Shown here: piece by piece, positions 5,001 to 63,069 of the stretch
Numbering within the stretch: position 1 is the stretch's first letter
How the letters are laid out: every line of letters starts with the position of its first letter
NCBI GenBank assembly: GCA_964366325.1
Contig: CAYITD010000001.1
Location: forward strand, 41,922-105,921
Source of the DNA: Candidatus Woesearchaeota archaeon
GTDB lineage: Archaea > Nanobdellota > Nanobdellia > Pacearchaeales > GW2011-AR1
Reading direction: 5' to 3'
Length of the DNA: 64,000 bases
Translations under genes and position numbers: made by a program
The notes under the pieces: generated by a model
What the model saw: only the letters and a program-made list of their open reading frames with translations
The model's database searches: none
Told to the model about the DNA's origin: nothing

Positions 5001-5023
5001 CCCTTAAGTAGCTAATTTATCAA

Positions 5024-41691: not shown

Positions 41692-42461
41692 TTTGGCATA
41701 AATCCTAAAAATTTATCATATATCCTTACAAATCTTCTAAGCGGAGAATTTATTATTCTCAACCTTAAAACCGCTAGAAACATAATAGGCGCAGATCTTA
41801 CAAAATTTATTGTTGAATATTCTTTATCAACCCAAATAGTCGGTATATCGATTATCCTTTTTTTCATCTTTTTTAACATATATAACATCTCAACATCGAA
41901 GGCCCACTTAGTCATGCCTAATTTAGGTAAAAGTTTTTCAATAACTTTTCTTCTGAATATCTTTGCACCGCATTGTGTGTCAGTATATGGAATAAATAAG
42001 AAAAATCTCACAATTAGATTAAAAATTCTTCCCGAGACAATTCTCCTAAAAGTAATAGGTGGGTAAACTTTAGAGCCAGGTAGATATCGATTAGCTATAA
42101 TTCCATCAAATTTATCTATCCCTTTTATTAACTTAAAATATTCTTCTGGCGATGTAGCCATATCCGCATCAACAAAGCCAATTAAATCATTTTCTCTCTT
42201 AAGTCCTTCTTTAAATCCTTCTATTACTGCGTAACCTTTTCCACCCTTAGGTAAATTTAGATAACTAATTCTTTGATTAATATTGCTAAATTTTTTGACG
42301 ATTTCCTCAGTTTTATCTTTTGTATTGTTTATAGAAACAAGTATTTCATAATCAATTTTTTCTTTCATTCTAATATTTTCAAAATAATCAGAGTAAGCCT
42401 CAAGAGTTTTTCCAATACGTCTTTCTTCATTATATGCAGGGATTACTATAAAAGCTTTCAT
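41688..42461 (-). CDS. polyprenyl(dolichyl)-phosphate glycosyltransferase, GT2 (Dpm1/AglD/AglJ-like)
   Basis: It has IVIPAYNEERRIGKTLE, GFVDADMATSPEE and TQCGAKIFRR. Confidence 0.8.
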   Translation of the reverse strand: MKAFIVIPAYNEERRIGKTLEAYSDYFENIRMKEKIDYEILVSINNTKDKTEEIVKKFSNINQRISYLNLPKGGKGYAVIEGFKEGLKRENDLIGFVDADMATSPEEYFKLIKGIDKFDGIIANRYLPGSKVYPPITFRRIVSGRIFNLIVRFFLFIPYTDTQCGAKIFRRKVIEKLLPKLGMTKWAFDVEMLYMLKKMKKRIIDIPTIWVDKEYSTINFVRSAPIMFLAVLRLRIINSPLRRFVRIYDKFLGFMPK

Positions 42462-43663: not shown

Positions 43664-43664
43664 T

Positions 43665-44678: not shown

Positions 44679-44680
44679 TT

Positions 44681-47386: not shown

Positions 47387-47404
47387 ATGTTTAAAAATAA
47401 AGGC

Positions 47405-47413
47405 TATATAAAT
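47405..47413 (-). promoter_or_regulatory. TATA-like box for the aglB operon
   Basis: ATTTATATA (minus-strand reading of 47405-47413) lies 23-26 nt upstream of the tandem ATGATG start at 47381-47386. Confidence 0.45.
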
Positions 47414-47576
47414 TTTTCAATTTTGTTTATGCAGCATAATTTAAATACAATTCATCATATCATCAAAGATGGGGAGAAATAGGCCAAATTCAAGCAGAGA
47501 TAATGAATTCTCTAATTTGGATAAACCTCATAATTATTCAAATTTAAAATAAAATTACAATAACCAAAATAATATA

Positions 47577-49148
47577 ATGAAAGAAGATAACAGTTTAGAA
47601 ATAAGAGAGTCCTTGAAATTAATAGCGAAAACTTCAGTAATAGTTTTTTTAAGTATTGTTTTTTCGAAGATAGTCGGATACATTTATAGAATATTGATTG
47701 CAAGATATTACGGACCAGAGATTTATGGTGTTTTTCTAATTTCTTTAATGGTCGCGGGCTGGTTTGGCGCTTTTTTTTCACTCGGTTTGTTAGAAGGTGT
47801 TGTAAGGTTTATCTCAATATTTCGTGGAAAGAAACAATTCAATAAAATAAAATACCTATACAATTTTTCATCACTAGTTTTGCTAACCACCGGATTATTA
47901 GGCGGAATTGTGATGTTTCTAACTGCGGATACGATTGCTATAAAGCTATTTCATAACCCAGAACTAACAATATTCATTAAACTATTAGGTTTGATTATGC
48001 CTATTTCTCTAATCTCTAACCTATTTCTTTCAATACTCAGAGCTTTTGAGAAAATTTATTGGTATTCTTTTATTTTCAATATAATACAAAATCTAACAAA
48101 AATTTCTTTGTTAGTGATTTTTATTATTTTGAGTGTGAATAGCTCAGCAGTAATACTTTCCCATATTTTAGCGGTAATACCCACATTAATCTTGTCTTAT
48201 ATAATTTGCAAGAAAGGGATAAAATTTTTATTTAAAAATGAATCAAAATTGAGAGAAACAAAGCTAATGAGGAAAGACTTAATTTATTACTCTCTACCTG
48301 TGATGTTCCATACAATTCTTTCTTCATTTTTCTTCTGGATAGACACTTTTTCAATTGGTTTAATCAATGGAGCGCTAGAAGTAGGAATTTATAATGCTGC
48401 AGTACCCATAGCCACATTGTTAGTTTTTGTGCCTGAAATTTTTATGCAACTTTTTTTCCCAATGATAAGTAAAAAATTATCACAAGGTAAAATTAACAAT
48501 GTGGAAGAATTGAGCAAAACAGTCTCAAAATGGATTTTAATATTAAACTTACCTATTTTTTCAATAATGTTCTTCTTTCCAGGAATAATAATAAATACAC
48601 TATTTGGCAGCAATTATTTAGCAGCCGCAGATTCATTAAGAATCCTTTCTATAGGTATGTTTTTCTCTTCTTTTTTCATAGTCTCAAATAACCTTCTATC
48701 AGCAGCAGGAAAATCAAAAACTATATTATTTGATATAGTACTTGCAGGTTTACTTAATCTAGTTTTAAATCAGGTTCTTATTCCAGTTTATGGGATAAAA
48801 GGAGCAGCATACTCAACCACTTTATCTTTAATATTGTTAAACCTGCTTTTCTTCTACCAATCTTACAAATACACTAAAGTTTTTCAATTAAGAAGAAAGA
48901 TGTTAGGGATAGTTTTAGTGGCCTGTATATCTGCTATCTCTCTTATAATTATAAGAAGTTTTCTTTTAGTAAATCTTTATACTTTAATATTTGCAGGCTT
49001 AGTTTATGGTTTAGTTTACATGGCCCTAATATTTTTAACCAGATCTCTGGACAGTCAGGATTTATTTATAATAAAGACATTCTCTTCCTCATTATTTAAA
49101 AAATCAAATAAAATCTACCAGAAGATCTCTTCAAATCATAGAGTTTAG
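47577..49148 (+). CDS. MOP-superfamily polysaccharide flippase (Wzx/MurJ-like)
   Basis: This 523-aa protein has about 14 TM segments and the typical N-terminal region VIVFLSIVFSKIVGYIYRILIARYYGPEIYG. Confidence 0.7.
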   Translation: MKEDNSLEIRESLKLIAKTSVIVFLSIVFSKIVGYIYRILIARYYGPEIYGVFLISLMVAGWFGAFFSLGLLEGVVRFISIFRGKKQFNKIKYLYNFSSLVLLTTGLLGGIVMFLTADTIAIKLFHNPELTIFIKLLGLIMPISLISNLFLSILRAFEKIYWYSFIFNIIQNLTKISLLVIFIILSVNSSAVILSHILAVIPTLILSYIICKKGIKFLFKNESKLRETKLMRKDLIYYSLPVMFHTILSSFFFWIDTFSIGLINGALEVGIYNAAVPIATLLVFVPEIFMQLFFPMISKKLSQGKINNVEELSKTVSKWILILNLPIFSIMFFFPGIIINTLFGSNYLAAADSLRILSIGMFFSSFFIVSNNLLSAAGKSKTILFDIVLAGLLNLVLNQVLIPVYGIKGAAYSTTLSLILLNLLFFYQSYKYTKVFQLRRKMLGIVLVACISAISLIIIRSFLLVNLYTLIFAGLVYGLVYMALIFLTRSLDSQDLFIIKTFSSSLFKKSNKIYQKISSNHRV

Positions 49149-49812: not shown

Positions 49813-51261
49813 ATGAAAAGAGAAATTGTTATTTTAGGAGCCGGACCTGCGGGAATGTCCTGCGCTATGGAGCTTTTTAAATCCGGTAAAAATGTAACTA
49901 TAATTGAAAAAGAGTCACAAGTAGGGGGTTTGGCCACTACATTAAAGTTCAAGGAGGGCAATTTTTTGTTTAGAACAGATCTAGGGCCCCATAGATTTTT
50001 TTCCAAAAATCCCTACTTATACAGTTTTATTGAAGATCTTCTAAACGAAAAATGGATTAAGGTAAAAAGGCAGACGAGACAATATATAGATGGTAAGTTC
50101 TATGATTACCCAATAAAAGCTATACAGGCTTTTAAAAATATTGGATATACAAGATCAATTTCTATGGGGTTTTCATATATAATAGGAGTGACTAAATATA
50201 AAATATTAAAGAAAAGTATCAAGACATTTGAGGATTATATAATTGCTAATTTTGGGAAAAAACTTGGTGAATTTAATATGTTAAATTACACAGAAAAGCT
50301 ATGGGGTCAGCCTTGTAGTACTTTACATCAAGACTGGGCTAAGCAAAGAATAAAAGGTCTTAATTTTATTTCGGCATTAAAAAATGCAGTTTTTTCTAAA
50401 AAAGATCTCAATGAACCAAAAAGTTTAGTGGACATGTTCTATTACCCTCAATATGGGACTGGCTTGATATATGAAGCAATTGCTCAAAAAATAAAAAAAG
50501 ACAGTAAAATTTATCTCAATAGTTATCCTGTTAAAATAAATCTTAGAAAAAATGAAATTCAAAGTGTAGACTGTATCATAGGAGGGAAGAGAAAAACAAT
50601 TTATCCTACGTGGTGTGTTAGCTCCATTCCGATAACTCAATTTTTTAAATTAATCAACCCTGCTCCTCCCAAAGAGGCAATAAAATCAGCGAGTAAACTA
50701 AAATGGAGGTCTCAAGTTTATCTGTTTATTACATTGGATAGGGAATCTGTCACTAAGGATAACTGGATTTATTTTCCAAATAAAGAGATTCCATTTGGAA
50801 GAATTTCAGAAATGAAGAACTTTAGCCAAGATATGAGTCCTAAAAATAAAACTTCAATATTTGTGGAATTTTTTGTGGATGAAGGAGACAAAATTTGGAA
50901 TATGGAGAAAGATGATCTGTTTAATCTAGCTATGCCTTTTTTTGAGAAACTAGAATTCTTCAAAAGAAGTGAAGTTAGAAATTATTACTTGCTGAAAAAG
51001 AAAAATGTTTATCCAGTTTATGATCTTACTTATCAAAAACACCTTGAAGTTGTTAAAAACTACTTAGACAAAATTCATAACCTCTCTTACATTGGCAGAC
51101 CCGGTCGATTTAAGTATAACAATCAAGACCATAGTCTAGAAATGGGCATGTTAGCTGCTAAAAGTATTATTGAAGGAAAAAAATATGATTTAGAAGAAAT
51201 TGGTTCTGAAGAGGAGTATTTTGAAAAGGGATACTTAAAAGATGGTAGTAAAAAAATTTAA
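49813..51261 (+). CDS. FAD-dependent oxidoreductase (amine-oxidase / UDP-galactopyranose-mutase-like fold)
   Basis: It has the dinucleotide motif VILGAGPAGMSCA..E, IIEKESQVGG, YTEKLWG and YYPQYGTG. Confidence 0.65.
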   Translation: MKREIVILGAGPAGMSCAMELFKSGKNVTIIEKESQVGGLATTLKFKEGNFLFRTDLGPHRFFSKNPYLYSFIEDLLNEKWIKVKRQTRQYIDGKFYDYPIKAIQAFKNIGYTRSISMGFSYIIGVTKYKILKKSIKTFEDYIIANFGKKLGEFNMLNYTEKLWGQPCSTLHQDWAKQRIKGLNFISALKNAVFSKKDLNEPKSLVDMFYYPQYGTGLIYEAIAQKIKKDSKIYLNSYPVKINLRKNEIQSVDCIIGGKRKTIYPTWCVSSIPITQFFKLINPAPPKEAIKSASKLKWRSQVYLFITLDRESVTKDNWIYFPNKEIPFGRISEMKNFSQDMSPKNKTSIFVEFFVDEGDKIWNMEKDDLFNLAMPFFEKLEFFKRSEVRNYYLLKKKNVYPVYDLTYQKHLEVVKNYLDKIHNLSYIGRPGRFKYNNQDHSLEMGMLAAKSIIEGKKYDLEEIGSEEEYFEKGYLKDGSKKI

Positions 51262-51661
51262 ATCTATTTTGTATATCTTTTTATCTAGAAATTTTTTCTT
51301 ATATTTGATCTTTGCAGGTGTCGCAACTCTTTTTGATTGGAGTACTTTTTATGCTAGTGTTTACGCACTTGGATATCATTATCTTCTAGGAACCATTTTT
51401 GGATTTTTAATAGGGAGTGCAATAAACTTTTCATTAAATAAATATCTTAATTTTAAGAATAAATATCAAATCATAAAAAACCAATTTGCTTTATTTTTAG
51501 TTGTTGCAGCAGTCGGATTAACTCTTTCTCTTTTAATTATGTTGTTCTTTGTAGGTTTTATTCATATTAACAAAATGGTTTCTAGAATAATCACGACTGG
51601 AATTGTTTTAATGTACAACTTTTTAGGACATAAATATTTAACTTTTAAAATTTTAAAATAA
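51242..51661 (+). CDS. GtrA-family membrane protein
   Basis: This 139-aa protein has 4 TM segments, with AGVATLFDWSTFY, NFSLNKYLNFKN and GHKYLTFK. It overlaps the FAD gene by 20 nt. Confidence 0.75.
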   Translation: MVVKKFKSILYIFLSRNFFLYLIFAGVATLFDWSTFYASVYALGYHYLLGTIFGFLIGSAINFSLNKYLNFKNKYQIIKNQFALFLVVAAVGLTLSLLIMLFFVGFIHINKMVSRIITTGIVLMYNFLGHKYLTFKILK

Positions 51662-51759
51662 TTTTTTTGATATACAAAGCAGGATAATGGGGGTCCAATC
51701 TAAGAATTAAATTATTCGGACGGCATCTTTATAAGCTAATATCTATTAGAAGATGATAG

Positions 51760-53436
51760 ATGGTTTTGCAAATTGCTCATTCTTTTAATGAAATCAAACA
51801 ACGTTTTAACAAGATTAATCCTTTTCTTGTGGCAGTTATTTTTTTTATTCTTATTTTTTTTATTCTTATTCTTTTTAATAGAGATATGCCGAGTGGCGAT
51901 GCGTCTGAATATTGCAATAATGCCTATCGCTTTTTTAAAGGAGACCTGCCATATAAGGATTTCTGGCTTATGTTTCCTCCAGGAGAACTATATTTTCCTG
52001 CGCTAATTTTCTTTTTTTTTGGTTTTAAGTATCAGGCATTGTTCATGTTTCTTATGTTCTCGAGTGCATTAATTGGTTTTCTTTCTTTCTTTCTTGCACG
52101 CAGATTTACTAGAGACAATTTTTGGGCGATGATTATCGCGATAATTGTTCAATTCTCAGGGGTTCCGCAATTTTATGGGCCAAATGATGGAGCTCATATT
52201 TATTTATTATTTTTGTTAGTTGCTGCCTTATTTTTTTTTAAAGACAAATATGAAATGCGTCCATTGCTTATGTTTTTTGCTGGAGCATTCATTGGGCTGG
52301 CTTCTCTTTGCCGTTTTTTCGAGACCGGTGCTTTTGGGTTATCTCTTCTTTGCACAACTTTCTGGAGAGCCTATATAACCAAGGCAGATTTTAAAAGAGT
52401 TATCCAAGGGCTTTTTTATCTCTTTGCTGGTGTATTCTTTTTATTATTTTTTGCTTATCTACCTCTTAGAAGTGTGTTCAATTCGGCTTTCGAAGAAATA
52501 ATTATTCATTCTATTAGGCATGGAACTTCTGGAGTATTCAATCTTCCTTATTTTTATACAACTAGCGTTTTTCTAGAAACTTTAGTTGATATTTTTTACG
52601 CTCCGAATATATTTGATTTATCTTGGATAACTAGTTTAGCAGGAATCACCTGGAGGCTTCTTTTTAATGTTATCTATCAATTACTTATTCCCTTAGCAAT
52701 TATTGCACTAATTGTTTTATTTATTAAATTTAAAGTTTTATCTGAATTTGAGTTTGCACTTCTTTTTTTTGTTCTTTGGGGCATATTCAGTTTTCCAAAA
52801 GGGTATGCTATTCCAGACAGAGCACACTTGTCTGTTGCAGTAACTCCTTTACTTTTTGGATTTGTTTTATTTGTAAAAAGGTATTGCAATTTTAAAACAG
52901 ATAGGGCTAAAGTTTTGCAAAATATTGTCTGTTTTTTAGCTTATCTATCAGTAATATTGTTATTAATCTCCACACCATTATTCATTGGTGTTTCTCTCAT
53001 TAATGGTTTTTCATCGAATCAATATGAAATAAATGCTCCAGAAGAAAAAATTTTTATAAATAATAAAGAGCGAGCGGCAGAATCCAATTTGTTAATAAAA
53101 TTTGTAGAGGACAATTCTGAAAAAGGAGATTACATTTTTGTTTCACCGTTTGACACTCCTCCTTTATACATGTTTACTCAAAGAAAAAACCCAACGTATT
53201 ACGATTCAACTATCGATCTTTTAACAAATGATTCGAGTTCGGAGGAGAAGCAAAAAAATATTTGCGATGATATATCTTCAAAGAAAACAAAATTGATTAT
53301 TCATTCTGATTGCCTGTTAGAAATGTGGGGTAAATGCAAATCTAATTTGCCAATCCTAGAAAGATGCATAAACGAATCATATTCTCTAAACAGATCTTAT
53401 GGAAAATATAAGTTATATTTGCCTAGAAAGGGTTGA
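51760..53436 (+). CDS. polytopic membrane protein, probable GT-C-like glycosyltransferase
   Basis: This 558-aa protein has many TM segments. Its first loop is DASEYCNNAYRFFKGDLPYKDFW..FPPGE. The TATA-like box CTTTATAAGC lies 28 nt upstream. Confidence 0.4.
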   Translation: MVLQIAHSFNEIKQRFNKINPFLVAVIFFILIFFILILFNRDMPSGDASEYCNNAYRFFKGDLPYKDFWLMFPPGELYFPALIFFFFGFKYQALFMFLMFSSALIGFLSFFLARRFTRDNFWAMIIAIIVQFSGVPQFYGPNDGAHIYLLFLLVAALFFFKDKYEMRPLLMFFAGAFIGLASLCRFFETGAFGLSLLCTTFWRAYITKADFKRVIQGLFYLFAGVFFLLFFAYLPLRSVFNSAFEEIIIHSIRHGTSGVFNLPYFYTTSVFLETLVDIFYAPNIFDLSWITSLAGITWRLLFNVIYQLLIPLAIIALIVLFIKFKVLSEFEFALLFFVLWGIFSFPKGYAIPDRAHLSVAVTPLLFGFVLFVKRYCNFKTDRAKVLQNIVCFLAYLSVILLLISTPLFIGVSLINGFSSNQYEINAPEEKIFINNKERAAESNLLIKFVEDNSEKGDYIFVSPFDTPPLYMFTQRKNPTYYDSTIDLLTNDSSSEEKQKNICDDISSKKTKLIIHSDCLLEMWGKCKSNLPILERCINESYSLNRSYGKYKLYLPRKG

Positions 53437-53741: not shown

Positions 53742-56453
53742 ATGTATAATTTAAAGAAATTTAAATTTCAAGTTGCTGGAATAATAATAGTTACAGCTCT
53801 TTTTTTCTACATAGAGTTATTGCACCCGTATAATTTTTTGAAAGATGATAATTTCACGCAATTTTTACCAGTTATTCTAGATGGAATGAAACAGCTTTTC
53901 AATGGTGGTTTTCCTTTTCTTGATTTACATCAATATACAGGTACAAAAATTTTTGAATCTGGCATATATGCAGTTTTATACCCTATTACAATCATCTCTT
54001 ATATAATTTCCCACTTTATTTTTAAAAATGACTTCTTTCTTCTTGAAATCTTTGTTTTAATACACATCATACTAGGTTTTCTAGCAACATATTACTTTTT
54101 AGCAAACAAGATAAAAAAATTAGTATCTCTGTGCGCAAGCATTGCGTTCGTCTTTTCCGGATATGTGCTAATTGCGACAAGTTTTTGGTATTATGTCATT
54201 CCAACCATAGTTTTTCTGCCTTTAATGCTAATCTTTCAAGATAAAATAAGCAGTAGTAAGCAGGATTATTTTAAAATATTTCTTTTTGGTATAACGAGAG
54301 GTGTTTATTTTTATTCTGGAAATGTGCAATATTTCTTATTTTCATGTATGTTTGAAGCACTTTATTTCATTTTAATTTCTTATCAAAATGATTGGAAGAA
54401 TTTTTCAAAAAATTTCGAGAAATATATCCTATCGCTATTTATAACTTTAATAATAATCTTTCCTTTATTCCTCTCTCAGCTTGCAGCGGTTAAGTTGTCA
54501 CATAGAGACAGCCCAGGCAATATTAATTATATTTTAAGTGCCTCATCTGCGCCACGCGAAATAATACTTGGTTCTTTGTTTGTATATCCAATTGTAAAAG
54601 GCGCCAATGCTTTTGCGTATGCACCTTCATCTTACATACATCTTTATTATTCAGGCACCCTTTTTTCATTGTTATTCTTTTTAGGCGGATTTTATTATCT
54701 AAAAAAATATAAATCAAAATCTCTTAGAAATATATCTCCTCTTTTCTGGTTGGGATCTTTATCGATCATACTAAGCTTGGGATACGTCGGAGGCATATAC
54801 CTCATAGGAGTTTTAATACCTATAATAAAAAACTTTTCAGGCCCATTTAAGTTTACTTTGTTCACAAATTTCTTTACAATCACATTTGGTGCTTTAATTT
54901 TGTCAAATATAAAAAATATAAACTATAAAAAGACAATACATCTAATTATATTGCTCTTCAGTCTTTTGATTTTGTATCATATTTATATTTGTAGTGTAAC
55001 TTCTGCATCTTATTATGGCGATAATTTTCCATTAAATTCAACTAAATATGATAAATTGAAATTAGAAGGATATAGAAGCATAAGCGTTTTTACTAACAGC
55101 ACTAATAATCCTCAATTAGTAAAATTCTCTACAAATAAGAAAAATTTTGCAGAGTCTTCGTATGTCGCTCATAATTTTGCTTCGTATTATAATGTAGACC
55201 ATATTTCAGGATATGAAACATTTAATGATTATCTGACTAATGAAAAAATATCTATTGGAAGATTTGGCCTAACAAATGTAAAGCTTAATCTTACTACATT
55301 AAAAGAATATGGCGTAAAATATATATTCATTCCTAAAGATAGTCTGATTTACCATACAGAACTAAATAACTTGTCAATAAAATATGAAGAGGATGATCTG
55401 TTAATACTAGAAATGCCAGATCCTAAAGGTTACGTATTCTATGGCTCTGGAAACATAGGTTACAAAAATAAAAATAATCGTATTTATTTTTCTACGAATT
55501 TTACAGAAAACCAAAATGTCACTTTAAATTTTCTTTTCAAGGAAGGATATCATGTTAAAATAAGTGGAGTTAAAAAAGAAATTTACCAAGACACTTTTGG
55601 AAGAATGTATCTTCAAGTCCCTGCTGGGAAACATGAAATTGTGCTATATTATTATTCTAAACCTTTAATCTTTGGAATTATTTTAGCAATTGCATTTACA
55701 TTATTAGTATTATTTTTTATTAGATACAAAGAAAAAGCTTACCAAATAATTAATAAGACAATATTAAGTAAAAATAAATATTTTGATAAATTTTATAATT
55801 TTAAATATATTAAAGCGATTTTGTTAATTTTATTAGTAATCATAATTTTATTTTCTTTTACAATTATATTTAAATCTTTCACTTCCACTGATCAGATGGA
55901 AAAAATATTTTATAGCAGAATTGGACTAAAAGTAAGTATTGACAAATCTCATTTGCGTTTAACTAATGGAAAAATTGAATTGGAAAAAGTAGCGCTCTAT
56001 AATGAGGCAAACGAAATATTTTATTCTGAAATCATAAATTTTGATGTTGATTATATACAAAGTATAAAGGAATCAATTTCTAATAAAATGCCAATAATTG
56101 AATTTAGCGATATAAAATTTACCAATCTACATTTTAATACAGGCGAAAAAAATAACACCAAAGTTTGTTTAACACAATTAATCGTCAAAACTGATAAATC
56201 ATACCTCAATAAGTCTTTTTACTCTGATGAAATAACTTTGTCAAATGCTTCACTCAAGGTCCCTAATAAAGCCAAATTTGATATCGGAAGGGGAGAAGTT
56301 TTAGTTGAAAATAAAAGTTTAAAGCTAAGTGGTGAAATTCTCATTGAAAAATACATACATGGAAATGTTACACTGGGAGAAAATTCTAACTATGTAGAAA
56401 ATAGATGCATAAGTCTTCCAATTGAAAAGAATAATTTGTTTTATAGCTCTTAA
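53742..56453 (+). CDS. large polytopic membrane protein, YfhO-like GT-C glycosyltransferase (tentative)
   Basis: This 903-aa protein has an N-terminal LKDDNFTQFLPV..L..GGFPFLD..QYTG motif resembling the YfhO family. About 14 TM segments, a soluble domain, one more TM segment and a C-terminal domain follow. Confidence 0.45.
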   Translation: MYNLKKFKFQVAGIIIVTALFFYIELLHPYNFLKDDNFTQFLPVILDGMKQLFNGGFPFLDLHQYTGTKIFESGIYAVLYPITIISYIISHFIFKNDFFLLEIFVLIHIILGFLATYYFLANKIKKLVSLCASIAFVFSGYVLIATSFWYYVIPTIVFLPLMLIFQDKISSSKQDYFKIFLFGITRGVYFYSGNVQYFLFSCMFEALYFILISYQNDWKNFSKNFEKYILSLFITLIIIFPLFLSQLAAVKLSHRDSPGNINYILSASSAPREIILGSLFVYPIVKGANAFAYAPSSYIHLYYSGTLFSLLFFLGGFYYLKKYKSKSLRNISPLFWLGSLSIILSLGYVGGIYLIGVLIPIIKNFSGPFKFTLFTNFFTITFGALILSNIKNINYKKTIHLIILLFSLLILYHIYICSVTSASYYGDNFPLNSTKYDKLKLEGYRSISVFTNSTNNPQLVKFSTNKKNFAESSYVAHNFASYYNVDHISGYETFNDYLTNEKISIGRFGLTNVKLNLTTLKEYGVKYIFIPKDSLIYHTELNNLSIKYEEDDLLILEMPDPKGYVFYGSGNIGYKNKNNRIYFSTNFTENQNVTLNFLFKEGYHVKISGVKKEIYQDTFGRMYLQVPAGKHEIVLYYYSKPLIFGIILAIAFTLLVLFFIRYKEKAYQIINKTILSKNKYFDKFYNFKYIKAILLILLVIIILFSFTIIFKSFTSTDQMEKIFYSRIGLKVSIDKSHLRLTNGKIELEKVALYNEANEIFYSEIINFDVDYIQSIKESISNKMPIIEFSDIKFTNLHFNTGEKNNTKVCLTQLIVKTDKSYLNKSFYSDEITLSNASLKVPNKAKFDIGRGEVLVENKSLKLSGEILIEKYIHGNVTLGENSNYVENRCISLPIEKNNLFYSS

Positions 56454-56635: not shown

Positions 56636-57271
56636 TTATGGTTTTTCTAATTTTATTACTCCAGATTCTTCCCAAATTTGGGCATTATTTTGTGAAGTCA
56701 TAACTGCATCCAGCTTAAAGTTTAATTCTTTAATTTTTTTTATGTATTCTGGGATCTCTTGTGGCCTCCCCCATCTTTCAGGGCATACAAGACAGGACTT
56801 GAATGGCCTAATTTTCTCTATAACTGAATAGTTTAACGGAAGTAATGTATTGGTGTCTATCCATATCCATTCAACAAGAGTCTTGCCTTTTACAATTTGT
56901 GCTTCAGCCATTTCTATCGGTTCTGCTTCGCTATATCGGATAGCAATTTTGTTAAAATTCTCTCTTCTTGTAGAGCTGTAAATAAAAGGAAATTCAGCAT
57001 CCAGGATAAAGTAGTTATTTATGTTATATTTTTTAGCCAAAAGGATTATATCTTTTTCATAGCCGGCTTCTTTAACATTAAAGATTATAAAGGCATGCTT
57101 AAAGTTTTTTAAATATTCTTCTAATTCCTCATATTTCAAACCATCTCTCACTACATCATGGCTTAGAAGAATTTTACTTCCAAATCCTCTCACGTCCACT
57201 TCTACACCATATTTTTCAGGTATCCTTCTTAACTTTTCTATTTCATTTACTCTATGAATTATTACAGGCAT
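56636..57271 (-). CDS. PLC-like/GDPD-superfamily phosphodiesterase-like TIM-barrel protein
   Basis: VIIHRVNE...GVEVDVR...ILLSHD matches the HR / E.D / HD catalytic pattern of glycerophosphodiester phosphodiesterases. It is the last gene of the operon. Confidence 0.4.
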   Translation of the reverse strand: MPVIIHRVNEIEKLRRIPEKYGVEVDVRGFGSKILLSHDVVRDGLKYEELEEYLKNFKHAFIIFNVKEAGYEKDIILLAKKYNINNYFILDAEFPFIYSSTRRENFNKIAIRYSEAEPIEMAEAQIVKGKTLVEWIWIDTNTLLPLNYSVIEKIRPFKSCLVCPERWGRPQEIPEYIKKIKELNFKLDAVMTSQNNAQIWEESGVIKLEKP

Positions 57272-57990
57272 TATAGGTTTAACCTCTTTTTTAAATCAAA
57301 AGTGAATTTAATTGTTCTTTTTATGAACTTTATTTTAGATGCTAAGTTGTTATTCCATGCGCTATGGCCATAAATTCTTTTCTTAAAAAGAACAGGGAAC
57401 CTCAGGATTTTATATCCTTCTTTTTTTGCGGTATAGTATATATACAGATCAAATGAAAAATCTGATGGCGGGTCTTTAATTAATCCAATAAATGAATTAT
57501 GGAATAAATTTGGCTGGGCGTTAATATCATAAAGAGGTTTTCCAAGAATTAGAGTTTCAAAGACTGACATTCCAAATGTAAAAAAACTATCTGAAAGTGG
57601 TCTTCCATATCTCTTGCCCTTGACAAAAACTTTTTCATCACTATTTTTTTGAATTATGTTTAAGGCTCTAATTGTATCTTTCGGATCAGTTTGCAAATCT
57701 GCATGCGTCCAGCAGATAAATTTCCCCCTTGCAAATTTTAGCCCGCTGTATAATGATAAACCATAACCTCTTTCATTAATTAAAAGCGCTTTAACAAAAG
57801 TATATTTTCTTGAGAATTTTTTTATTACTTCTCTAGTTTTGTCAGTACTTCCAGTATCTTCGACAAATATAACTTCAATGTTTTTAACTTTTGTCAATTT
57901 TAGATACTCTGCAACAACTAGAGGAATATTCTGCTCTTCATTAAATACCGGTAAAACTATGGAAAGTTCAGGTTTCAATTTCTTAAGCAT
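57271..57990 (-). CDS. polyprenyl-phosphate glycosyltransferase, GT2 (GtrB/Dpm1/ArnC-like)
   Basis: It has LSIVLPVFNEEQNIP, VEDTGSTDKT and WTHADLQ. Confidence 0.75.
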   Translation of the reverse strand: MLKKLKPELSIVLPVFNEEQNIPLVVAEYLKLTKVKNIEVIFVEDTGSTDKTREVIKKFSRKYTFVKALLINERGYGLSLYSGLKFARGKFICWTHADLQTDPKDTIRALNIIQKNSDEKVFVKGKRYGRPLSDSFFTFGMSVFETLILGKPLYDINAQPNLFHNSFIGLIKDPPSDFSFDLYIYYTAKKEGYKILRFPVLFKKRIYGHSAWNNNLASKIKFIKRTIKFTFDLKKRLNL

Positions 57991-58802
57991 TTTCTAAAAT
58001 AATCCTCCCATAAAATTATTTCTTTTTCATCTAGGGGAATTTCCTTTAAGCTTTTAAATTTGTAAAAATACAATATTTTTTCAAATTCGTGAAATTCCTC
58101 AGGAGTTCCCCAGCCAATTAATAAATCTACGTCAAATATGCAACTCTTTTTATTAAGTAATTTTAAAGCTTTTGGAAGGTTATCCAAGTAATATTCGTTA
58201 TTAGTTTTTATCTGTTTCTCCATCATAATCCTGATAGCTTCAAAAAGCGTTTTCTTAGATTTAAGCCAAAAAGTTGCAGCAACAGCATGATCATTTAAGG
58301 GATTATCTGAAATGGGTATTTTTACACTCATGTCTTTTATTGTTTTATTATCTTCTTCTAATAAAGTATACCCCCAAGCTCGAGGGTTGTTCTGGATTCT
58401 CTTGTCTTTAGTAAATGTCCAGAGGATACAATCATAATTACTTTTTTTTAATTCCTCAAATTTTTTTTTATTATAAACAAATCCCATGTCGCACCCAGTT
58501 ACAATTACTTCCTCCTCCTCATTCAAATATTGCTCTGTACAAAAAATACTTGCTCCGCCCAGTAAGTCTTTATCTACTGTAATAATTGCTTTAGGAATTT
58601 TTCTTTTAATAACTTGATCAATACCAAATTGATCAATATGCTCTTGTTTCACGACAAATATCCATTTATCGCTAGGAGGTAAACAATTTATAACTTTCCA
58701 GATCATAGGCTCTCCATCAATTGGAAGTAAAGGTTTTGGCAACAAGTATCCTTCATCTGAAAATCTTTTCCCTTTTCCAGCCATCGTAATTATATTAGCC
58801 AC
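57975..58802 (-). CDS. sugar-phosphate nucleotidyltransferase (NTP_transferase fold)
   Basis: It has ITMAGKGKRFSDEGYLLPKPLLPIDGEPMI, which matches the G.G.R...PK.L signature. Confidence 0.6.
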   Translation of the reverse strand: MANIITMAGKGKRFSDEGYLLPKPLLPIDGEPMIWKVINCLPPSDKWIFVVKQEHIDQFGIDQVIKRKIPKAIITVDKDLLGGASIFCTEQYLNEEEEVIVTGCDMGFVYNKKKFEELKKSNYDCILWTFTKDKRIQNNPRAWGYTLLEEDNKTIKDMSVKIPISDNPLNDHAVAATFWLKSKKTLFEAIRIMMEKQIKTNNEYYLDNLPKALKLLNKKSCIFDVDLLIGWGTPEEFHEFEKILYFYKFKSLKEIPLDEKEIILWEDYFRKCLRN

Positions 58803-58834: not shown

Positions 58835-59530
58835 TTATGCTTGTCCGTAATAGCTTTTTGAACCATGCTTCCTGGAAAAATGTTTTTCTATCAAAATTGG
58901 ATCTAAGGGAGGAGTTCTAGGATTCAATGCGAGCGTGGCGAAATTGATTCTAGCTATTTCCTCTAAAGCTATCGCCACTTCGAGTGTTTCTTTAACACTT
59001 CGCCCCCACAAAAATACTCCATGCCCTGGGATTAAACAAGCAGGCACATCCATTGGCGAAATTAGGTTAGTATTAAAAAACTCTACTATTGCCTTACCCG
59101 TGTTAGTTTCATAATTTGTTTGCACTTCTTCAGTCCTTAATGTTCTTACTACCGGAACTGAACCTTTAAAAAAATCTGCATGTGTTGTTCCAAAGCACTC
59201 AATCGGCTTAAGCGCCTGAGCGTGGGCAGTAGCATAGGGAGAATGAGTATGGATAACAGACCCTATTTCAGGAAATCCATTATAAAGTTCTAGGTGTGTT
59301 GGAAAGTCAACGCTAGCCCTATCATATTTGCCTTTATGTTTTATTTCTCCAGAGGTGTCCAAGTAAATAATATCTTGATCTTCCAACGCACTAAAATCAA
59401 CTCCGCTAGGTTTTATTCCAATAATTCCATCTCTTCTATCAATTGCGCTAAGGTTACCAAAATTCAACTTCACTAAGTTTTCAGTAGCCAACCTTTGATT
59501 ACCTCTTCTTATAACCGCATTTTCTATCAT
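58835..59530 (-). CDS. araD: L-ribulose-5-phosphate 4-epimerase (class II aldolase fold)
   Basis: It is collinear by eye with E. coli AraD, sharing GNLSAIDR, IKPSGVDF, FPTHLELY, VIHTHSPYAT, GTTHADFF, LEE and KHGSKSYYGQ. Confidence 0.85.
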   Translation of the reverse strand: MIENAVIRRGNQRLATENLVKLNFGNLSAIDRRDGIIGIKPSGVDFSALEDQDIIYLDTSGEIKHKGKYDRASVDFPTHLELYNGFPEIGSVIHTHSPYATAHAQALKPIECFGTTHADFFKGSVPVVRTLRTEEVQTNYETNTGKAIVEFFNTNLISPMDVPACLIPGHGVFLWGRSVKETLEVAIALEEIARINFATLALNPRTPPLDPILIEKHFSRKHGSKSYYGQA

Positions 59531-60141
59531 TTTAACTTGAATTTCTTTACTAGTAAATTCGATTGCGAAATATTATATAAAGATATATGATCTAGAAAAT
59601 AACTTTCTTTCATATCATTTTTTTCAATCACATCAAAAACTCGTTTAAATTTATTTTCTTCTATAGAAGCCAAAGTAATATGTGGGATCCAATTATCTTC
59701 TATATAAGGAAAGCCATATTCTTTAATCTTCTCTCTCTCTTGTTCATTAAATTTCAGATAATCTTTAGAATTTATCAAGATCGATTTTTTTGTGTTAAAT
59801 TTGTCTATTTTTTTTATTAGGTCAATTTGAAAATTTCTTAGTTTTTTCAAGCTATTTTGGTCAAATGAACAAACTAAAGTATTATTATCAGTTAGTACGT
59901 CTTTAAAAAAAACATTAAGTCCAGTGATATTTAACTTAATCTTTTCTGTAATTAAGCTGATTTTTTCAATTTCATCTAAGAGCTCAGCTATAGATTCAGA
60001 AGTCAAAACAATTAATGTCGTATGAGGTTCTTCAGATAGATATTTTTGATCTCCAATTAGATTCCTTATGAAAGATTTTTTACTATTTATTAAATTTTTC
60101 AGTTTCAATTCAGGTTCCAAGGCTATAAAGTACTTATCCAT
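59527..60141 (-). CDS. 2H phosphoesterase superfamily protein (LigT / cyclic phosphodiesterase-like)
   Basis: It has two HxTx motifs, EPHTTLIVL and IPHITLASI, about 115 aa apart. Confidence 0.6.
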   Translation of the reverse strand: MDKYFIALEPELKLKNLINSKKSFIRNLIGDQKYLSEEPHTTLIVLTSESIAELLDEIEKISLITEKIKLNITGLNVFFKDVLTDNNTLVCSFDQNSLKKLRNFQIDLIKKIDKFNTKKSILINSKDYLKFNEQEREKIKEYGFPYIEDNWIPHITLASIEENKFKRVFDVIEKNDMKESYFLDHISLYNISQSNLLVKKFKLK

Positions 60142-62653
60142 TTTTGAATTGTTTTAAAACTTCTCTAATCTGTTCACTACTTAGATCTATATATAATTTG
60201 CCATCCTTCTTTAAAAAAAATTTAAATTGTTCTAAGTGCGGAACAGTTATTTTATACCATTCCTTTTTAGGTATTCTTAAGCTGAGTCCGATTAATATCC
60301 TTAGTACTACATTATGTGTGCAAACGGCTATGTTTCTTTCTTCTCGTACATTTATATCTGCTAAAAAAGAGTTCATTCTATTCATTACATCAAGATAATT
60401 TTCTCCTTGTGGAAACTTTGGATCTTCTCCAAGTTCCCAAGCTTTTAGCATAAACGGGTGCTTTTGCTTGATGTAATTCGGATCTTTCCCATCAGCTAAT
60501 CCATAATCTATTTCCTTTAGCCTAGAATCTAGGTTTATTTTATTAAAACCTAATTCCTTTAAAGTCCCCAAACATCTGCTCAATGGCGAAGAGACTACAA
60601 AATTAGGCTCTCCAACTATCTCTTTAAATTTATTAATTGTTTTTTTATCAAGTTTAGTTATGTTAGGATTTTGTCTTTGACCAATAAAAAGATTTTTTTT
60701 ATTTAATTTAGTCTTGGCATGTCTGAAAAAAATAATCTCTTTTGAACTATCATTAAAGTAATTCTTAAATTGAAATTCAAAGTCTTTTATAAATAATTCA
60801 AGGTTTTTCTTTATAGGTTGGAAACTTTCATAAGTATTTTTCTTTTTCATTTTTTCTAATTTTTTTATGAAGATTTCATGTTTAATTCTATTTTTTGGAA
60901 ATAATCTAAAATATAGCTTCATTGTTTTTCTTAAATCATGTCTTTTATTTTCTTTAAAGTATAATTTTAAAAAATTAGACATAAGAAAATTTGCAATGTG
61001 GTATGAAAATTCAATCTTATCCTTAACATTAGCTAATTTATATTTTTTTTCTTCTAAAATTTTATCTTTGTCAAACAAGTACTCTCTGTAGGAGATTTTA
61101 TCTGCCAATACATCAGAAAGGTATTCACTTGCGCTTCTTCTAGTATTGAAGAAATCACTTGGTTGGATCATTCTCACCTTATAAATTTCAGCCATTGATT
61201 TTTTTACAAATATAGGTGATCTTTGCCAGTCAAAACATGTAAAGGGGCTTTTCTGACAATGTTGTTTATGCAGTTGTTTATCGTAAATCATCAAGTGGAA
61301 AACTATGTTTCTTTCGTTAAATTTTAGAGGACCAAATGTATTATTAATATATATTTTATATCCATATTTTGACTCCAGTTGAGTTTTCTTCTTATTAAAA
61401 CATTCAATAATAAACTCGTATTTATCTTTTGTTAGGCTGTCAGCTATAATTACTATATCTATATCACTAATTCCTTCAAGAGAATTGCTTTCTGCAAAGC
61501 TGCCTACTAACGTTCCAGATTCAACAAAATCAATAGAGTTAATAGTTTCTTTGATACCTTCAATTATGTCTTTTCTAAGTTCATCCCTTATGTCTCTATA
61601 TCTAGCGCTAGTTTTTAATTCCATAAAAGATTTAATTGGATTGTCTGAAGAAAATAAACTTGAAGCTGCTACGATATATTTTGCAGAGATTTGTGGTATA
61701 TTTGTAGGTTTTACTCCACCATCAAAGATTATATCAAATGAATGAGTCTTCTGCAACTCTCTTAGTTCTTTAAGTTTGTCTAGTGCAGATACTTCAAGGC
61801 CTTGTCCAGATTTCCCTAGGGTTTTTATTCCCATAACCTGCACAAATTCGATATTTTTTATATAAGGCATCAAATCTTTAATTTTTGATTCATAGCCCAA
61901 GATAATGCCGCATTTTTTCTTATTGATCTTACAAAATTCAATAATTTCATTTAAATTATCCTCAATTTCTAAATGGAACAAAATTATGTCAACATAAGGG
62001 TAAACTTTTTTTATCCATTCAAAAGGTTTTTTAGACATAACATGAAACATTTTTTTTAATGCCCAGGTTTTATTAATTTCTTTTATTAAAGACAAGTCAA
62101 CTTCACTACATTCCTTATTTATTGTTTCATCTACCAAGTCAATATGTATAAAATCGCAATAGTACTTGATTTTAGAGTAAGCTTCCTCAATTGATTGGTT
62201 CTTTGCTAGATAAATGGCTATACCTACATTTTTCATAAAATTAAAAGTTATTTTTCTATGCGCTAAATAACTAGCCATAAAAATTACAGAAGCAGTTGCA
62301 AATCTTAAGGTGGTGTAATCAACATTAAATTTTCGTGAAATCAATCCCATAATTATAAAATTCAAAATTAAAGAAATAGTAGATATTGTAGAAAATAAAG
62401 CAAATGTTCTAAGATTATTTTTTTTTGGCACTCTGAAGTTTAATCTTGAATTTAAAATATAACTTAGAAATAGACCTGACATAAAACCTATAGGGGCGCT
62501 GAAAATTAAAGAAACTCCAATTTTATTGAATTGACTTATTATTATTATTTCCAATAGTATCGAAAAGAAGCCAATTATTATGTAATTAAACAGATATCTA
62601 AACCTATAAATTAAAAAATTTATTCCTTTAACAATTGATTTTTTATTTACCAT
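60134..62653 (-). CDS. four-domain fusion protein: GtrA-like 4-TM module + ribulose-phosphate-3-epimerase-like TIM barrel + Pol-beta-type nucleotidyltransferase + histidine phosphatase (PGM-family)
   Basis: Residues 1-138 form the GtrA module (NSRLNFRV, AHRKITFNF). Residues 142-346 are Rpe-like (IHIDLVDE, FHVMS, VQVMGIKTLGKSGQ, IIFDGGV). Residues 375-465 are the NTase (GTLVGSFAE..GISDIDIVII). Residues 638-825 are the histidine phosphatase (IFFRHAKT, SSPLSRCLGT, EIDYGLADG, CTHNVVLR). It is a single uninterrupted 2520-nt ORF in roughly 20% GC DNA. Confidence 0.7.
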   Translation of the reverse strand: MVNKKSIVKGINFLIYRFRYLFNYIIIGFFSILLEIIIISQFNKIGVSLIFSAPIGFMSGLFLSYILNSRLNFRVPKKNNLRTFALFSTISTISLILNFIIMGLISRKFNVDYTTLRFATASVIFMASYLAHRKITFNFMKNVGIAIYLAKNQSIEEAYSKIKYYCDFIHIDLVDETINKECSEVDLSLIKEINKTWALKKMFHVMSKKPFEWIKKVYPYVDIILFHLEIEDNLNEIIEFCKINKKKCGIILGYESKIKDLMPYIKNIEFVQVMGIKTLGKSGQGLEVSALDKLKELRELQKTHSFDIIFDGGVKPTNIPQISAKYIVAASSLFSSDNPIKSFMELKTSARYRDIRDELRKDIIEGIKETINSIDFVESGTLVGSFAESNSLEGISDIDIVIIADSLTKDKYEFIIECFNKKKTQLESKYGYKIYINNTFGPLKFNERNIVFHLMIYDKQLHKQHCQKSPFTCFDWQRSPIFVKKSMAEIYKVRMIQPSDFFNTRRSASEYLSDVLADKISYREYLFDKDKILEEKKYKLANVKDKIEFSYHIANFLMSNFLKLYFKENKRHDLRKTMKLYFRLFPKNRIKHEIFIKKLEKMKKKNTYESFQPIKKNLELFIKDFEFQFKNYFNDSSKEIIFFRHAKTKLNKKNLFIGQRQNPNITKLDKKTINKFKEIVGEPNFVVSSPLSRCLGTLKELGFNKINLDSRLKEIDYGLADGKDPNYIKQKHPFMLKAWELGEDPKFPQGENYLDVMNRMNSFLADINVREERNIAVCTHNVVLRILIGLSLRIPKKEWYKITVPHLEQFKFFLKKDGKLYIDLSSEQIREVLKQFKNG

Positions 62654-63069
62654 TTTGAATTTTTAAAAGCTATAATTTTAGTCCCAAAAAAATTTATAAT
62701 TGTAAGAATAGGGAGCAAAATAAAATTGGCAAAAATAGGATTTAGGTTTAATAAATCAACAAATATTTTCAATAAAGTTATATTGAAAATTAGAGAGATT
62801 AGATAAACCAAAAAATATTTGGGAAGACTTTTATTTATTTTTTCGTTTGAGCTAAAAGTTAAAGTTTTATTGAAGCCAAAACCGAAAACAACTCCCGCCA
62901 TAAAGCCGATTCCTGCAGAAAGCAAATAATTTATGCTGAAAATCGCAAAAAATATAAGAAAAATCAGATAATTTAATACTGTACTAGTCAATCCTATTAA
63001 AACGAAAACCATGGCTTGTCTAGTTATTTCTCTTCTTAACAGCACTTTTACCATAAAAATCAATTCCAA
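62647..63069 (-). CDS. GtrA-family membrane protein
   Basis: It has 4 TM segments, with GLTSTVLNYLIF, FNKTLTFSS and TKIIAFKN. ATG at 63054 is the more likely start, with a TATA-like box 25 nt upstream. Confidence 0.75.
   Translation of the reverse strand: MELIFMVKVLLRREITRQAMVFVLIGLTSTVLNYLIFLIFFAIFSINYLLSAGIGFMAGVVFGFGFNKTLTFSSNEKINKSLPKYFLVYLISLIFNITLLKIFVDLLNLNPIFANFILLPILTIINFFGTKIIAFKNSKW

Follow-up and report, generated by a model that had tools for sequence, protein, structure and literature searches.

An 839-residue GtrA, Rpe-like, nucleotidyltransferase and histidine phosphatase fusion in a DPANN archaeon and the rare conserved cassette to which it belongs

Here we describe an unusual gene in a 64,000-nucleotide stretch of DNA (the window) from a Candidatus Woesearchaeota archaeon of the order Pacearchaeales (GenBank assembly GCA_964366325.1, contig CAYITD010000001.1, positions 41,922 to 105,921 of the forward strand). 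The gene lies on the minus strand at 60134..62653 of the window and encodes, as judged from Pfam and an AlphaFold2 model, an 839-amino-acid fusion of a GtrA membrane module, a barrel resembling ribulose-phosphate 3-epimerase (Rpe), an ANT-like nucleotidyltransferase (NT) and a histidine phosphatase (HisPhos). In it, two genes that bacteria keep apart (GtrA-Rpe and NT-HisPhos) have been joined in a lineage-specific manner, and both belong to a conserved cassette of eight genes. The cassette is built partly from uncharacterised families and is rare, yet it occurs in both prokaryotic domains, and this context outweighs the fusion itself in interest. We consider it probable, at roughly 60%, that the cassette is a glycosylation system of the three-component type with its own donor line, and that the fusion is the membrane-tethered, multi-enzyme head of a pathway to a lipid-linked sugar of the pentose type.

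The fusion is encoded by a single open reading frame (ORF) that starts with ATG and runs through 839 codons to one terminal stop. A previous model-made note on the window, drawn up from the letters and their translations (the sequence-only reading), had taken it for one uninterrupted frame that could not arise by chance, and on both points it was right: under the ORF's own base composition the probability of meeting no stop in 839 codons is about 10^-35, and a chance origin is excluded. The GC content of about 20% given there was too low, as the ORF has 27.2% and the window 31.1%. All of the motifs it quoted are present where expected, namely IHIDLVDE (residues 169-176), FHVMS (203-207), VQVMG (271-275), GKSGQ (280-284) and FDGGV (310-314) in the barrel, VGSF (383-386) and SDIDIVII (396-403) in the nucleotidyltransferase, and RHAKT (644-648), SSPLSRC (688-694), EIDYG (714-718) and CTHN (778-781) in the phosphatase. 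The one correction here is the spacing between GS and SDID, which is 10 residues and not 11.

An identical 839-amino-acid protein is present on a 12,454-nt ENA contig and on a 190,082-nt contig (NCBI, Logan, ENA). More than 60 homologues from independent assemblies, at 38-75% identity, keep the domain order, as seen in metagenome-assembled genomes (MAGs) of Nanoarchaeota, Pacearchaeota and Woesearchaeota. The full-length homologues, which stem from different samples, comprise 26 more proteins of 827-858 amino acids and 18 five-domain forms of 938-1000 amino acids. The longer forms, including that of Halobaculum sp. P14, carry in frame at the N-terminus a second GtrA module, the counterpart of the free GtrA gene found in the window. 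In public databases these homologues bear generic names ('histidine phosphatase family protein', 'GtrA family protein', 'phosphoglycerate mutase'). The suggestion that the architecture is undescribed holds in the sense that our literature searches met with no characterisation of it, but it is not unique, with more than 60 entries under such names. Could the long ORF be an artefact of assembly or a frameshift that merges separate genes, as the earlier concern about chimerism implied? The parts do occur separately in bacteria and some archaea (GtrA-Rpe / NT-HisPhos; GtrA-Rpe-NT / HisPhos), however, the recovery of the same protein from separately sourced contigs, the 26 and 18 divergent homologues with the same order and the high confidence with which the domain junctions are modelled leave this explanation a vanishingly small probability. 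The fusion is neither an oddity nor a chimera, and the 839-amino-acid protein is real.

The four-domain assignment likewise stood up, as all four domains exceed their Pfam gathering scores and have intact catalytic residues. The GtrA module (residues 1-140; 62234..62653, minus strand, as for all segments of the fusion) was recognised by Pfam and in the model and belongs to what we call the R class. It matches GtrA_DPMS_TM (PF04138) over residues 24-137 with 50.3 bits against a cut-off of 26.1, and falls below the cut-off of the NCBIfam gtrA_1 subfamily (13.9 vs. 50). Its four transmembrane (TM) helices are modelled at residues 19-44, 49-71, 77-108 and 113-136, with predicted local distance difference test (pLDDT) values mostly of 86-95. 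Basic residues at the N-terminus and in the even-numbered loops suggest that the topology is N-in/C-in, so that the catalytic domains would sit in the cytoplasm. Only five residues separate the last GtrA helix from strand 1 of the following (beta/alpha)8 barrel, and this junction is conserved.

The barrel (residues 141-350; 61604..62233), assigned by Pfam and Foldseek, matches Ribul_P_3_epim (PF00834) over residues 150-334 with 68.1 bits against 21.1, and its structural matches are 2fli (S. pyogenes Rpe), 3qc3 and 1rpx (E 1e-11, target TM-score up to 0.83). Residues H170, D172, H204 and D311, conserved at 95% or more across the family, align with the H-x-D, HxM and DGG motifs of rice and human RPE, where we take their counterparts to be the four metal ligands. 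The phosphate-binding loops GxSGQ, DGG and AASS are present as well. Scores on the housekeeping Rpe equivalog TIGR01163 (66.4 against a cut-off of 212.6) and on NF004076 (104.7 against 165) stay below the thresholds, and on these profile scores the barrel is classed as a divergent Rpe subfamily and not as a housekeeping Rpe ortholog.

The middle part of the protein, here called NT-mid (residues 351-638; 60740..61603), is a two-domain nucleotidyltransferase delimited with Pfam and a Foldseek search of a separate model. NTP_transf_2 (PF01909) covers residues 377-431 with 25.9 bits against 21, and most homologues score under this cut-off. The Pol-beta signature is V-G384-S385 ... S-D397-I-D399-I, in which the G, the S and both D residues show little or no variation. 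What the sequence-only reading had called a 'minimal' nucleotidyltransferase is really the front part of an ANT-like module of about 290 residues, consisting of a Pol-beta core with a helical and beta-hairpin domain, and residues ~466-637, which it had left unassigned, belong to this module and to the most conserved stretch of the protein. Over residues ~380-620, an alignment of 18 members with identities down to 32% has 31 invariant columns, including G384, (S385), D397, D399, N437, GPLK 441-444, H453, M455, Y457, H462, H465, SPFT 469-472, W476, R505, R506, Y511, R523, H552, N560, K563, K603 and F621. A conserved His/Cys cluster, H462-x2-H465-C466-x6-C473 followed by D475-W476, is located at 61235-61270 of the window; C466 is Val in many bacterial members, and the cluster could be a metal site.

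An alignment profile of NT-mid compared with the PDB returned no meaningful sequence-level relative. Foldseek with the model of all 839 residues gave matches for the Rpe and HisPhos domains only, and a separate model of NT-mid was therefore needed (pLDDT 89.6, predicted TM-score (pTM) 0.86). With this model the top full-length matches are ANT(4') 6p01, AAD(9) 6xz0, ANT(3'')(9) 7uy4 and AadA, ahead of minimal MNT proteins and DNA polymerase beta. As these matches span ~300 columns with E-values of 4e-4 to 2e-2, TM-scores of 0.44-0.54, 8-11% identity and a root-mean-square deviation above 7 A, NT-mid is best described as resembling the ANT enzymes in layout, and no family membership is claimed.

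The C-terminal histidine phosphatase of branch 1 (residues 639-839; 60134..60739), assigned by Pfam and Foldseek, matches His_Phos_1 (PF00300) over residues 640-806 with 93.3 bits against 21.7 and keeps the catalytic residues R644-H645 (RHA), R693, E714 and H780. Its Foldseek matches 6s2q, 9mmh, 4qih and 3hjg are small-molecule histidine phosphatases, with a target TM-score of about 0.74. Among the named NCBIfam equivalogs (CobC, PspA, dPGM, GpmB and others) it reaches the cut-off of none, the best being TIGR03162 with 87.9 against 162.9, and such scores do not separate phosphatase from mutase. NT-mid and the phosphatase have no linker between them, as the last NT-mid helix (611-635) continues into a strand at 637-644. 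The residues at the domain junctions of the fusion are themselves conserved, and the whole protein, modelled by AlphaFold2 with a 74-sequence alignment, has a mean pLDDT of 91.4 and a pTM of 0.83.

In the window the fusion is the second of seven genes in a minus-strand operon that runs from 63069 to 56636. The operon opens with a free GtrA of 140 amino acids (62647..63069; GtrA_DPMS_TM 75 bits), which we place in an 'F class' and whose stop reaches 7 nt into the start of the fusion. Overlapping the stop of the fusion by 8 nt is the gene for a 204-amino-acid phosphoesterase of the 2H (LigT/CPDase) type (59527..60141). This protein carries the H-x-T motifs HTTL at 40 and HITL at 154, scores just under the Pfam cut-offs of 2_5_RNA_ligase2 (23 bits) and DUF1045 (22 bits), and has weak NCBIfam matches to TIGR02258 and TIGR03223. 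It is followed by a 231-amino-acid protein similar to the L-ribulose-5-phosphate 4-epimerase AraD (58835..59530; Aldolase_II 143 bits, NCBIfam AraD subfamily 254 vs. 257), and by a 275-amino-acid sugar-phosphate nucleotidyltransferase of the GlmU/RmlA/HddC type (57975..58802), here NTPtr, with a MAGKGKRF loop. NTPtr matches NTP_transf_3 with 34 bits, the NCBIfam GlmU N-terminal domain with 35 bits and IspD/TarI with 13.6 bits, and its PDB matches are eIF2B-gamma and HddC. A small soluble glycosyltransferase of family 2 (GT2), with 239 amino acids, a Glycos_transf_2 match of 68 bits and a basic amphipathic C-terminus (57271..57990), and a conserved 211-amino-acid protein named U205 (56636..57271), which is defined by its conservation and occurrence in the cassette, complete the operon. 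Successive genes overlap by 7, 8, 4, 16 and 1 nt, with one gap of 32 nt, and the operon is translationally coupled.

U205 has no match in Pfam, NCBIfam or the PDB, and six members searched against Pfam at E-values up to 10 gave nothing consistent. Nevertheless, six distant members from archaea and bacteria share 44 invariant residues, and the family has more than 6000 homologue clusters at 90% identity, all of which are unnamed or 'hypothetical'. Its N-terminal pattern (HR.NE ... ExDxR ... HD) brought a GDPD-type phosphodiesterase to mind, a candidate that was rejected since hhalign against E. coli UgpQ gave a probability of 0.15 and aligned different motifs. An hhalign comparison of U205 with the alignment of the whole fusion found no relation. 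A few U205 proteins are fused to PterinBD-DUF4346 (PF14251), a domain that is likewise functionally uncharacterised.

The same set of genes lies around homologues in Halobaculum, further DPANN genomes, Marinimicrobia and a planctomycete-like contig, and was recovered in 80 genome loci. When one genome from each of 185,579 species was scanned for two signature peptides of the NT module, the cassette was found in about 108, and an exhaustive profile search of 1.84 billion representative proteins returned 431 clusters of the module, most with 470-510 amino acids corresponding to NT plus HisPhos. The carriers include DPANN lineages, Thermoplasmatota and Halobaculum, and on the bacterial side many Planctomycetota, of which Limnoglobus roseus PX52 is in culture, along with Verrucomicrobiota, SAR11 (Pelagibacterales), Marinimicrobia, Chitinophagia, members of the candidate phyla radiation and further groups. 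We built hidden Markov models of the components and scored every ORF of 88 loci. Among the 44 loci with enough flank to count as complete, HisPhos and NTPtr are present in all 44, Rpe in 43, GtrA, 2H and U205 in 42 each, GT2 in 41 and AraD in 31. A complete cassette was also seen in SAR11 single-cell and complete genomes (L068, L069, L077, L081, L084 and L086, including Ca. Pelagibacter nBUS_28), which is notable given their streamlined genomes.

How the NT module is joined to its partners varies between lineages. Over 86 loci, the gene carrying it is NT-HisPhos in 61, the four-domain GtrA-Rpe-NT-HisPhos in nine and the five-domain GtrA-GtrA-Rpe-NT-HisPhos in four, while 2H-NT-HisPhos accounts for four, GtrA(-GtrA)-Rpe-NT with HisPhos separate or joined to 2H for five, NT-HisPhos-HisPhos (two HisPhos matches in one ORF) for two and NT-HisPhos-NTPtr for one. 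Further fusions in the cassette are HisPhos-2H, GT2-2H and GtrA-U205. The Rpe barrel is joined to GtrA in 74 of 76 complete ORFs. The search for the same order as opposed to split genes that had been proposed with the sequence-only reading thus shows the fused form in DPANN archaea, and GtrA-Rpe and NT-HisPhos as separate genes in bacteria. The four- and five-domain forms are essentially archaeal, with the addition of two MAGs labelled as candidate-phyla-radiation bacteria. These two (L045, labelled Saccharibacteria, and L056, labelled Patescibacteria) have the archaeal-type fusion in place of the bacterial split genes, which could reflect horizontal transfer between episymbiont lineages or a binning error. 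Taken as Rosetta stones, the varied fusions indicate that the enzymes of the cassette work together.

The GtrA modules of the cassette fall into two classes, one fused to Rpe and the other free or first in a tandem pair. The nearest neighbour lies in the same class for 134 of 135 modules, and identity is 34% within and 17% between classes, and the two classes are ancient and distinct. As bacteria and archaea alike retain both, in some cases as a tandem fusion, a hetero-oligomer or two separate roles are suggested, in the latter case one as an anchor or lipid-phosphate platform and the other as a transporter.

We found no description of the cassette in literature searches on the domain combination, on xylulose or ribulose glycan biosynthesis and on links between epimerases and glycans. 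A survey of archaeal fusions mentions other Rpe and HisPhos fusions but not GtrA-Rpe-NT-HisPhos (PMC11237513). A plasmid search for annotated relatives yielded generic histidine phosphatases only. Among 5,426 E. coli genomes there was no DNA-level match to a betaproteobacterial copy, a result that neither supports nor firmly excludes a link to the xylulofuranose of O95/O97.

The connection with glycosylation comes from the GT2 and from the membrane proteins around the cassette. The solved relatives of the GT2 include P. furiosus DPMS (5mlz), GtrB sll0501 and ArnC, three enzymes that load sugars onto polyprenyl phosphates, although the cassette enzyme, unlike these, has no TM helices. Of 72 loci that could be evaluated, 45 have a polytopic protein (at least 400 amino acids and at least 7 TM helices) no more than 4.5 kb from the cassette, for example a PMT_2 (GT-C) protein in a DPANN locus (L002) and a DUF6798 protein in Halobaculum (L001), and systems of the Gtr and CsbB/GtcA/YfhO types use GtrA, GT2 and GT-C proteins together. 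In the window this place is taken by a convergent gene on the plus strand (53742..56453) for a 903-amino-acid polytopic protein with about 11 TM helices, which is a candidate GT-C-type transferase on the basis of weak matches among its homologues. These homologues (37-45% identity) match only the C-terminal end of Pfam YfhO (31 bits, the last ~78 of 835 profile positions) and part of DUF748, and the protein may represent a divergent archaeal branch of the YfhO-like GT-C enzymes. One of its homologues, in Pacearchaeota (KW787_01260), has a locus tag numbered beside that of a U205 homologue (KW787_01265).

How might these parts act together? In the pathway we favor, the four-helix GtrA module would hold the three catalytic domains at the cytoplasmic face of the membrane, where the Rpe barrel and AraD would set the configuration of a ketopentose 5-phosphate drawn from central metabolism. 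Since Rpe-like and AraD enzymes are both specific to 2-ketopentose 5-phosphates, the starting compound is most likely D-ribulose-5-phosphate, D-xylulose-5-phosphate or, via AraD, L-ribulose-5-phosphate. NT-HisPhos, the 2H enzyme and U205 would then carry out the phosphate and nucleotide chemistry that yields a substrate for the GlmU-type transferase, which would make a nucleoside diphosphate (NDP)-sugar to be loaded by the GT2 onto dolichyl or polyprenyl phosphate. Finally, the pair of GtrA proteins would move the lipid-linked sugar across the membrane and a GT-C-type enzyme would use it outside the cell. The sequence-only reading had proposed that tethering channels a sugar phosphate straight into a membrane step. 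A coupling of soluble sugar-phosphate chemistry with a membrane step does fit the conserved operon and the many alternative fusions, but 'straight into' bypasses at least five conserved enzymes that are encoded next door, and channelling between the domains of the fusion is something that we infer.

Several points weigh against this pathway. On the chemical side, the conserved genes of the cassette include no aldose-ketose isomerase, reductase, kinase or mutase, and the conversion of a ketopentose 5-phosphate to an anomeric phosphate is consequently unexplained by known chemistry; moreover, two different nucleotidyltransferases within one pathway are unusual and AraD is missing from 13 of the 44 complete loci. 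The GT2 scores only 33-35 bits against DPMS, GtrB and ArnC, and a GT2 of unassigned function scores higher. As for the membrane partners, 27 of the 72 loci have no polytopic neighbour, the 903-amino-acid protein of the window has no Pfam match, and the partners of different loci are mostly unrelated by BLAST, which is however expected if an acceptor-specific GT-C transferase is interchangeable. The fusion is predicted as one compact object, a packing of domains for which the pTM of the model is the evidence. Furthermore, to our knowledge flippase activity of a GtrA protein has never been directly demonstrated. The same is true of related flippase candidates (Kelly et al., 2024, PMC11127046).

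A more specific route within this pathway can be outlined, which we regard as speculative and, taken as a whole, unlikely. It holds that the cassette makes an activated pentofuranose directly from a ketopentose 5-phosphate, without phosphoribosyl pyrophosphate (PRPP), a sugar kinase or a mutase, with xylulofuranose, ribulofuranose or a similar ketopentofuranose as a possible donor. A ketopentose 5-phosphate cannot form a furanose before the 5-phosphate is removed, and dephosphorylation by HisPhos is for this reason placed first. HisPhos would free the 5-hydroxyl and let the ring close, the fused ANT-like domain would nucleotidylate a hydroxyl of the sugar, and a cyclic phosphate, whose formation might fall to U205, would be opened by the 2H enzyme to give the anomeric phosphate. 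From this the GlmU-type enzyme would produce the NDP-sugar, which the GT2 would transfer to dolichyl or polyprenyl phosphate with a heteromeric GtrA flippase at its side. One membrane-tethered polypeptide would house most of the route in DPANN and haloarchaea. It is plausible in that each conserved gene is given one job and that the steps roughly track the bacterial gene order. How bacteria come by activated xylulofuranose is a recognised gap in knowledge (PMC7685785).

Other functions for the cassette have to be weighed against the favored pathway. The Rpe-like barrel could epimerise the sugar after its loading onto lipid, as in DprE1/E2 or ORF13, with the fused GtrA serving as a polyprenyl-phosphate platform like the TM domain of DPMS and the phosphate site of the barrel holding the lipid phosphate of a keto-sugar. 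This would account well for the near-obligate union of GtrA and Rpe (74 of 76 complete ORFs), for their conserved junction of five residues, for the existence of an R-class paralogue apart from the free GtrA and for the GtrA_DPMS_TM fold, which is the membrane domain of DPMS and the source of the Pfam name, and epimerisation after loading has been proposed for pentofuranose systems (Kelly et al., 2024, PMC11127046). However, the chemistry of Rpe needs a free 2-keto group beside C3, which a glycosidically linked furanose does not have, the four metal ligands and the phosphate-loop glycines are canonical, as for a soluble substrate, and AraD, a soluble enzyme of ketopentose 5-phosphates, usually accompanies the cassette. 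We therefore see it as an improbable, though by no means negligible, alternative.

It is doubtful, too, that what the cassette attaches is a pentulose or pentitol phosphate in phosphodiester linkage, in the manner of teichoic acids. Here NTPtr would make a CDP-5-pentulose, in the way of known cytidylyltransferases that act on xylulose-5-phosphate or ribulose-5-phosphate, NT would pass the phospho-sugar on to an acceptor like LicD or FKRP, and HisPhos, 2H and U205 would trim or recycle phosphates. NTP_transf_3 is indeed the top Pfam match of NTPtr, NT-mid pairs its nucleotidyltransferase fold with a helical domain and falls in one fold class with LicD, fukutin and FKRP, and three activities of the phosphoesterase type would suit phosphodiester chemistry. 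Nonetheless, FKRP and LicD are not among the 50 Foldseek matches listed for NT-mid, where ANT enzymes lead, and NTPtr is far nearer to sugar-1-phosphate transferases (GlmU 35 bits, HddC) than to IspD/TarI. Two GtrA modules and a DPM1/GtrB-like GT2 would have no obvious role in such a system, and the cassette contains no pentitol reductase. Lastly, the fusion could be a membrane-anchored piece of central pentose or nucleotide metabolism (e.g., interconversion or salvage) with coincidental neighbors. Rpe and AraD are ordinary enzymes of pentose metabolism, and DPANN genomes, which often lack a complete pentose-phosphate pathway, might recruit unusual enzymes, but we judge this very unlikely: 41-44 of the 44 complete loci, from unrelated phyla that include Planctomycetota with large genomes and normal central metabolism, have these neighbors, the barrel scores 66 vs. 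212 bits on the housekeeping equivalog, and the family is rare, as its occurrence in ~108 of 185,579 species and 431 clusters among 1.84 billion representatives attests.

If the donor-making glycosylation pathway is correct, the cassette is a self-contained module for placing an unusual sugar of the pentose type on cell surfaces, and one which has spread horizontally among DPANN, haloarchaea, Planctomycetota, Verrucomicrobiota, candidate-phyla-radiation bacteria and SAR11. SAR11 bacteria are among the most abundant marine organisms, and their surface glycans are thought to influence interactions with phages and grazers. The chemistry itself may be new, as the ANT-like NT module, the R-class GtrA-Rpe fusion and U205 are without a characterised homologue. 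The alternative fusions offer a Rosetta stone for ordering the steps of the pathway, and the obligate GtrA-Rpe pair together with two ancient GtrA classes provides a handle on the still unsettled function of GtrA proteins. Cultured carriers, namely Limnoglobus roseus PX52 and Halobaculum sp. P14, allow a direct test.

The rest of the window contains further genes related to glycans. Adjoining the cassette on the plus strand is a second GtrA-linked trio (49813-53436), composed of a 482-amino-acid flavoenzyme with matches to the UDP-galactopyranose mutase GLF and to amine oxidases, a 139-amino-acid GtrA that overlaps its end, and a 558-amino-acid protein with about nine TM helices and no Pfam match, and this trio may be a separate three-component module of the furanose type. 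A glycosylation island at 40759-49148 encodes an AglB/STT3 oligosaccharyltransferase (44681-47386, minus strand), a GT4 phosphosugar transferase (43665-44678), Wzx/MATE-type flippases (42458-43663 and 47577-49148) and two GT2s. The island corresponds to archaeal N-glycosylation, as would suit a DPANN archaeon with a large investment in surface glycans, and it adds to the links of the cassette with lipid-linked glycosylation. Adjacent genes for tRNA-Arg(CCT) and tRNA-Gly(TCC) at 4896-5095 on the plus strand are the only Rfam/ARAGORN matches in the 64 kb.

Each part of the fusion has relatives among known enzymes. With housekeeping Rpe (2fli, 3ovp, 1h1y) the barrel shares its fold, the four metal ligands and the phosphate-binding loops, but it is only ~20-23% identical and is membrane-anchored, and one position of the methionine 'cushion', M274, is not conserved in the family, in which Q272 is. 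The ANT enzymes (ANT(4'), ANT(9), ANT(3'')(9)/AadA), which nucleotidylate hydroxyl groups of sugars and cyclitols, have the Pol-beta core, helical domain and G-S ... D-x-D of NT-mid; they have no known counterpart of its His/Cys cluster (H462, H465, C473) or of R505/R506, and NT-mid, unlike them, is almost always fused to a histidine phosphatase. The arrangement of a nucleotide-using N-terminal domain with a C-terminal histidine phosphatase that acts on a ketofuranose phosphate is also that of PFKFB, whose phosphatase domain is among the structural matches of ours. This is an analogy only, as the N-terminal domain of PFKFB is a P-loop kinase and not a Pol-beta-type transferase, and its role is regulatory and not biosynthetic. 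In P. furiosus DPMS (5mlz) a four-helix domain of the GtrA type is covalently joined to a cytoplasmic sugar-handling domain, as in the fusion, and its catalytic domain is a sequence relative of the cassette GT2. The order differs, however, with the GtrA-type domain following GT2 in DPMS, whereas in the fusion GtrA precedes the Rpe barrel and GT2 is separate and soluble.

At the level of whole systems, the three-component machineries for extracytoplasmic glycosylation, GtrA/GtrB/GtrC of Shigella and Salmonella phages and CsbB/GtcA/YfhO of Bacillus and Listeria, resemble the cassette in their small GtrA proteins, in a GT2, which in the cassette is a modest-scoring relative of GtrB, DPMS and ArnC, and in a big polytopic protein, which the cassette often has next door, all encoded in one cluster. 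They use a ready-made UDP-hexose, whereas the cassette adds five or six donor-making enzymes and also differs in its two GtrA paralogues, its GT2 free of TM helices and the constant fusion of one GtrA to an Rpe-like barrel. The closest parallel for a pentose-derived lipid-linked donor, as proposed here, would lie with the pentofuranose systems. One mycobacterial protein in this comparison, Rv3789, is presumably GtrA-like. It has been classed as a transporter of the SMR family (Kelly et al., 2024, PMC11127046). Both the ORF12-15 system of Citrobacter youngae (Kelly et al., 2024, PMC11127046) and the mycobacterial decaprenyl-phospho-arabinose pathway (Rv3806c, Rv3807c, DprE1/E2, Rv3789) start from PRPP by way of a UbiA-type phosphoribosyltransferase, which the cassette does not have. 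Entry into the cassette would instead be through ketopentose-phosphate epimerases of the Rpe/AraD type and loading through a GT2 that depends on a nucleotide sugar; its phosphatase is a HisPhos and not a HAD or PAP2 protein, and its ANT-like nucleotidyltransferase, 2H enzyme and U205 have no counterpart in the pentofuranose systems. Nevertheless, in these systems a lipid-sugar synthase is accompanied by a phosphatase and an epimerase (Kelly et al., 2024, PMC11127046). As the cassette is read here, it has in common with them a dedicated phosphatase (fused to the synthase in their ORF15), an auxiliary epimerase that would set the identity of the sugar, a small flippase candidate and a GT-C transferase, which in the cassette is a putative one.

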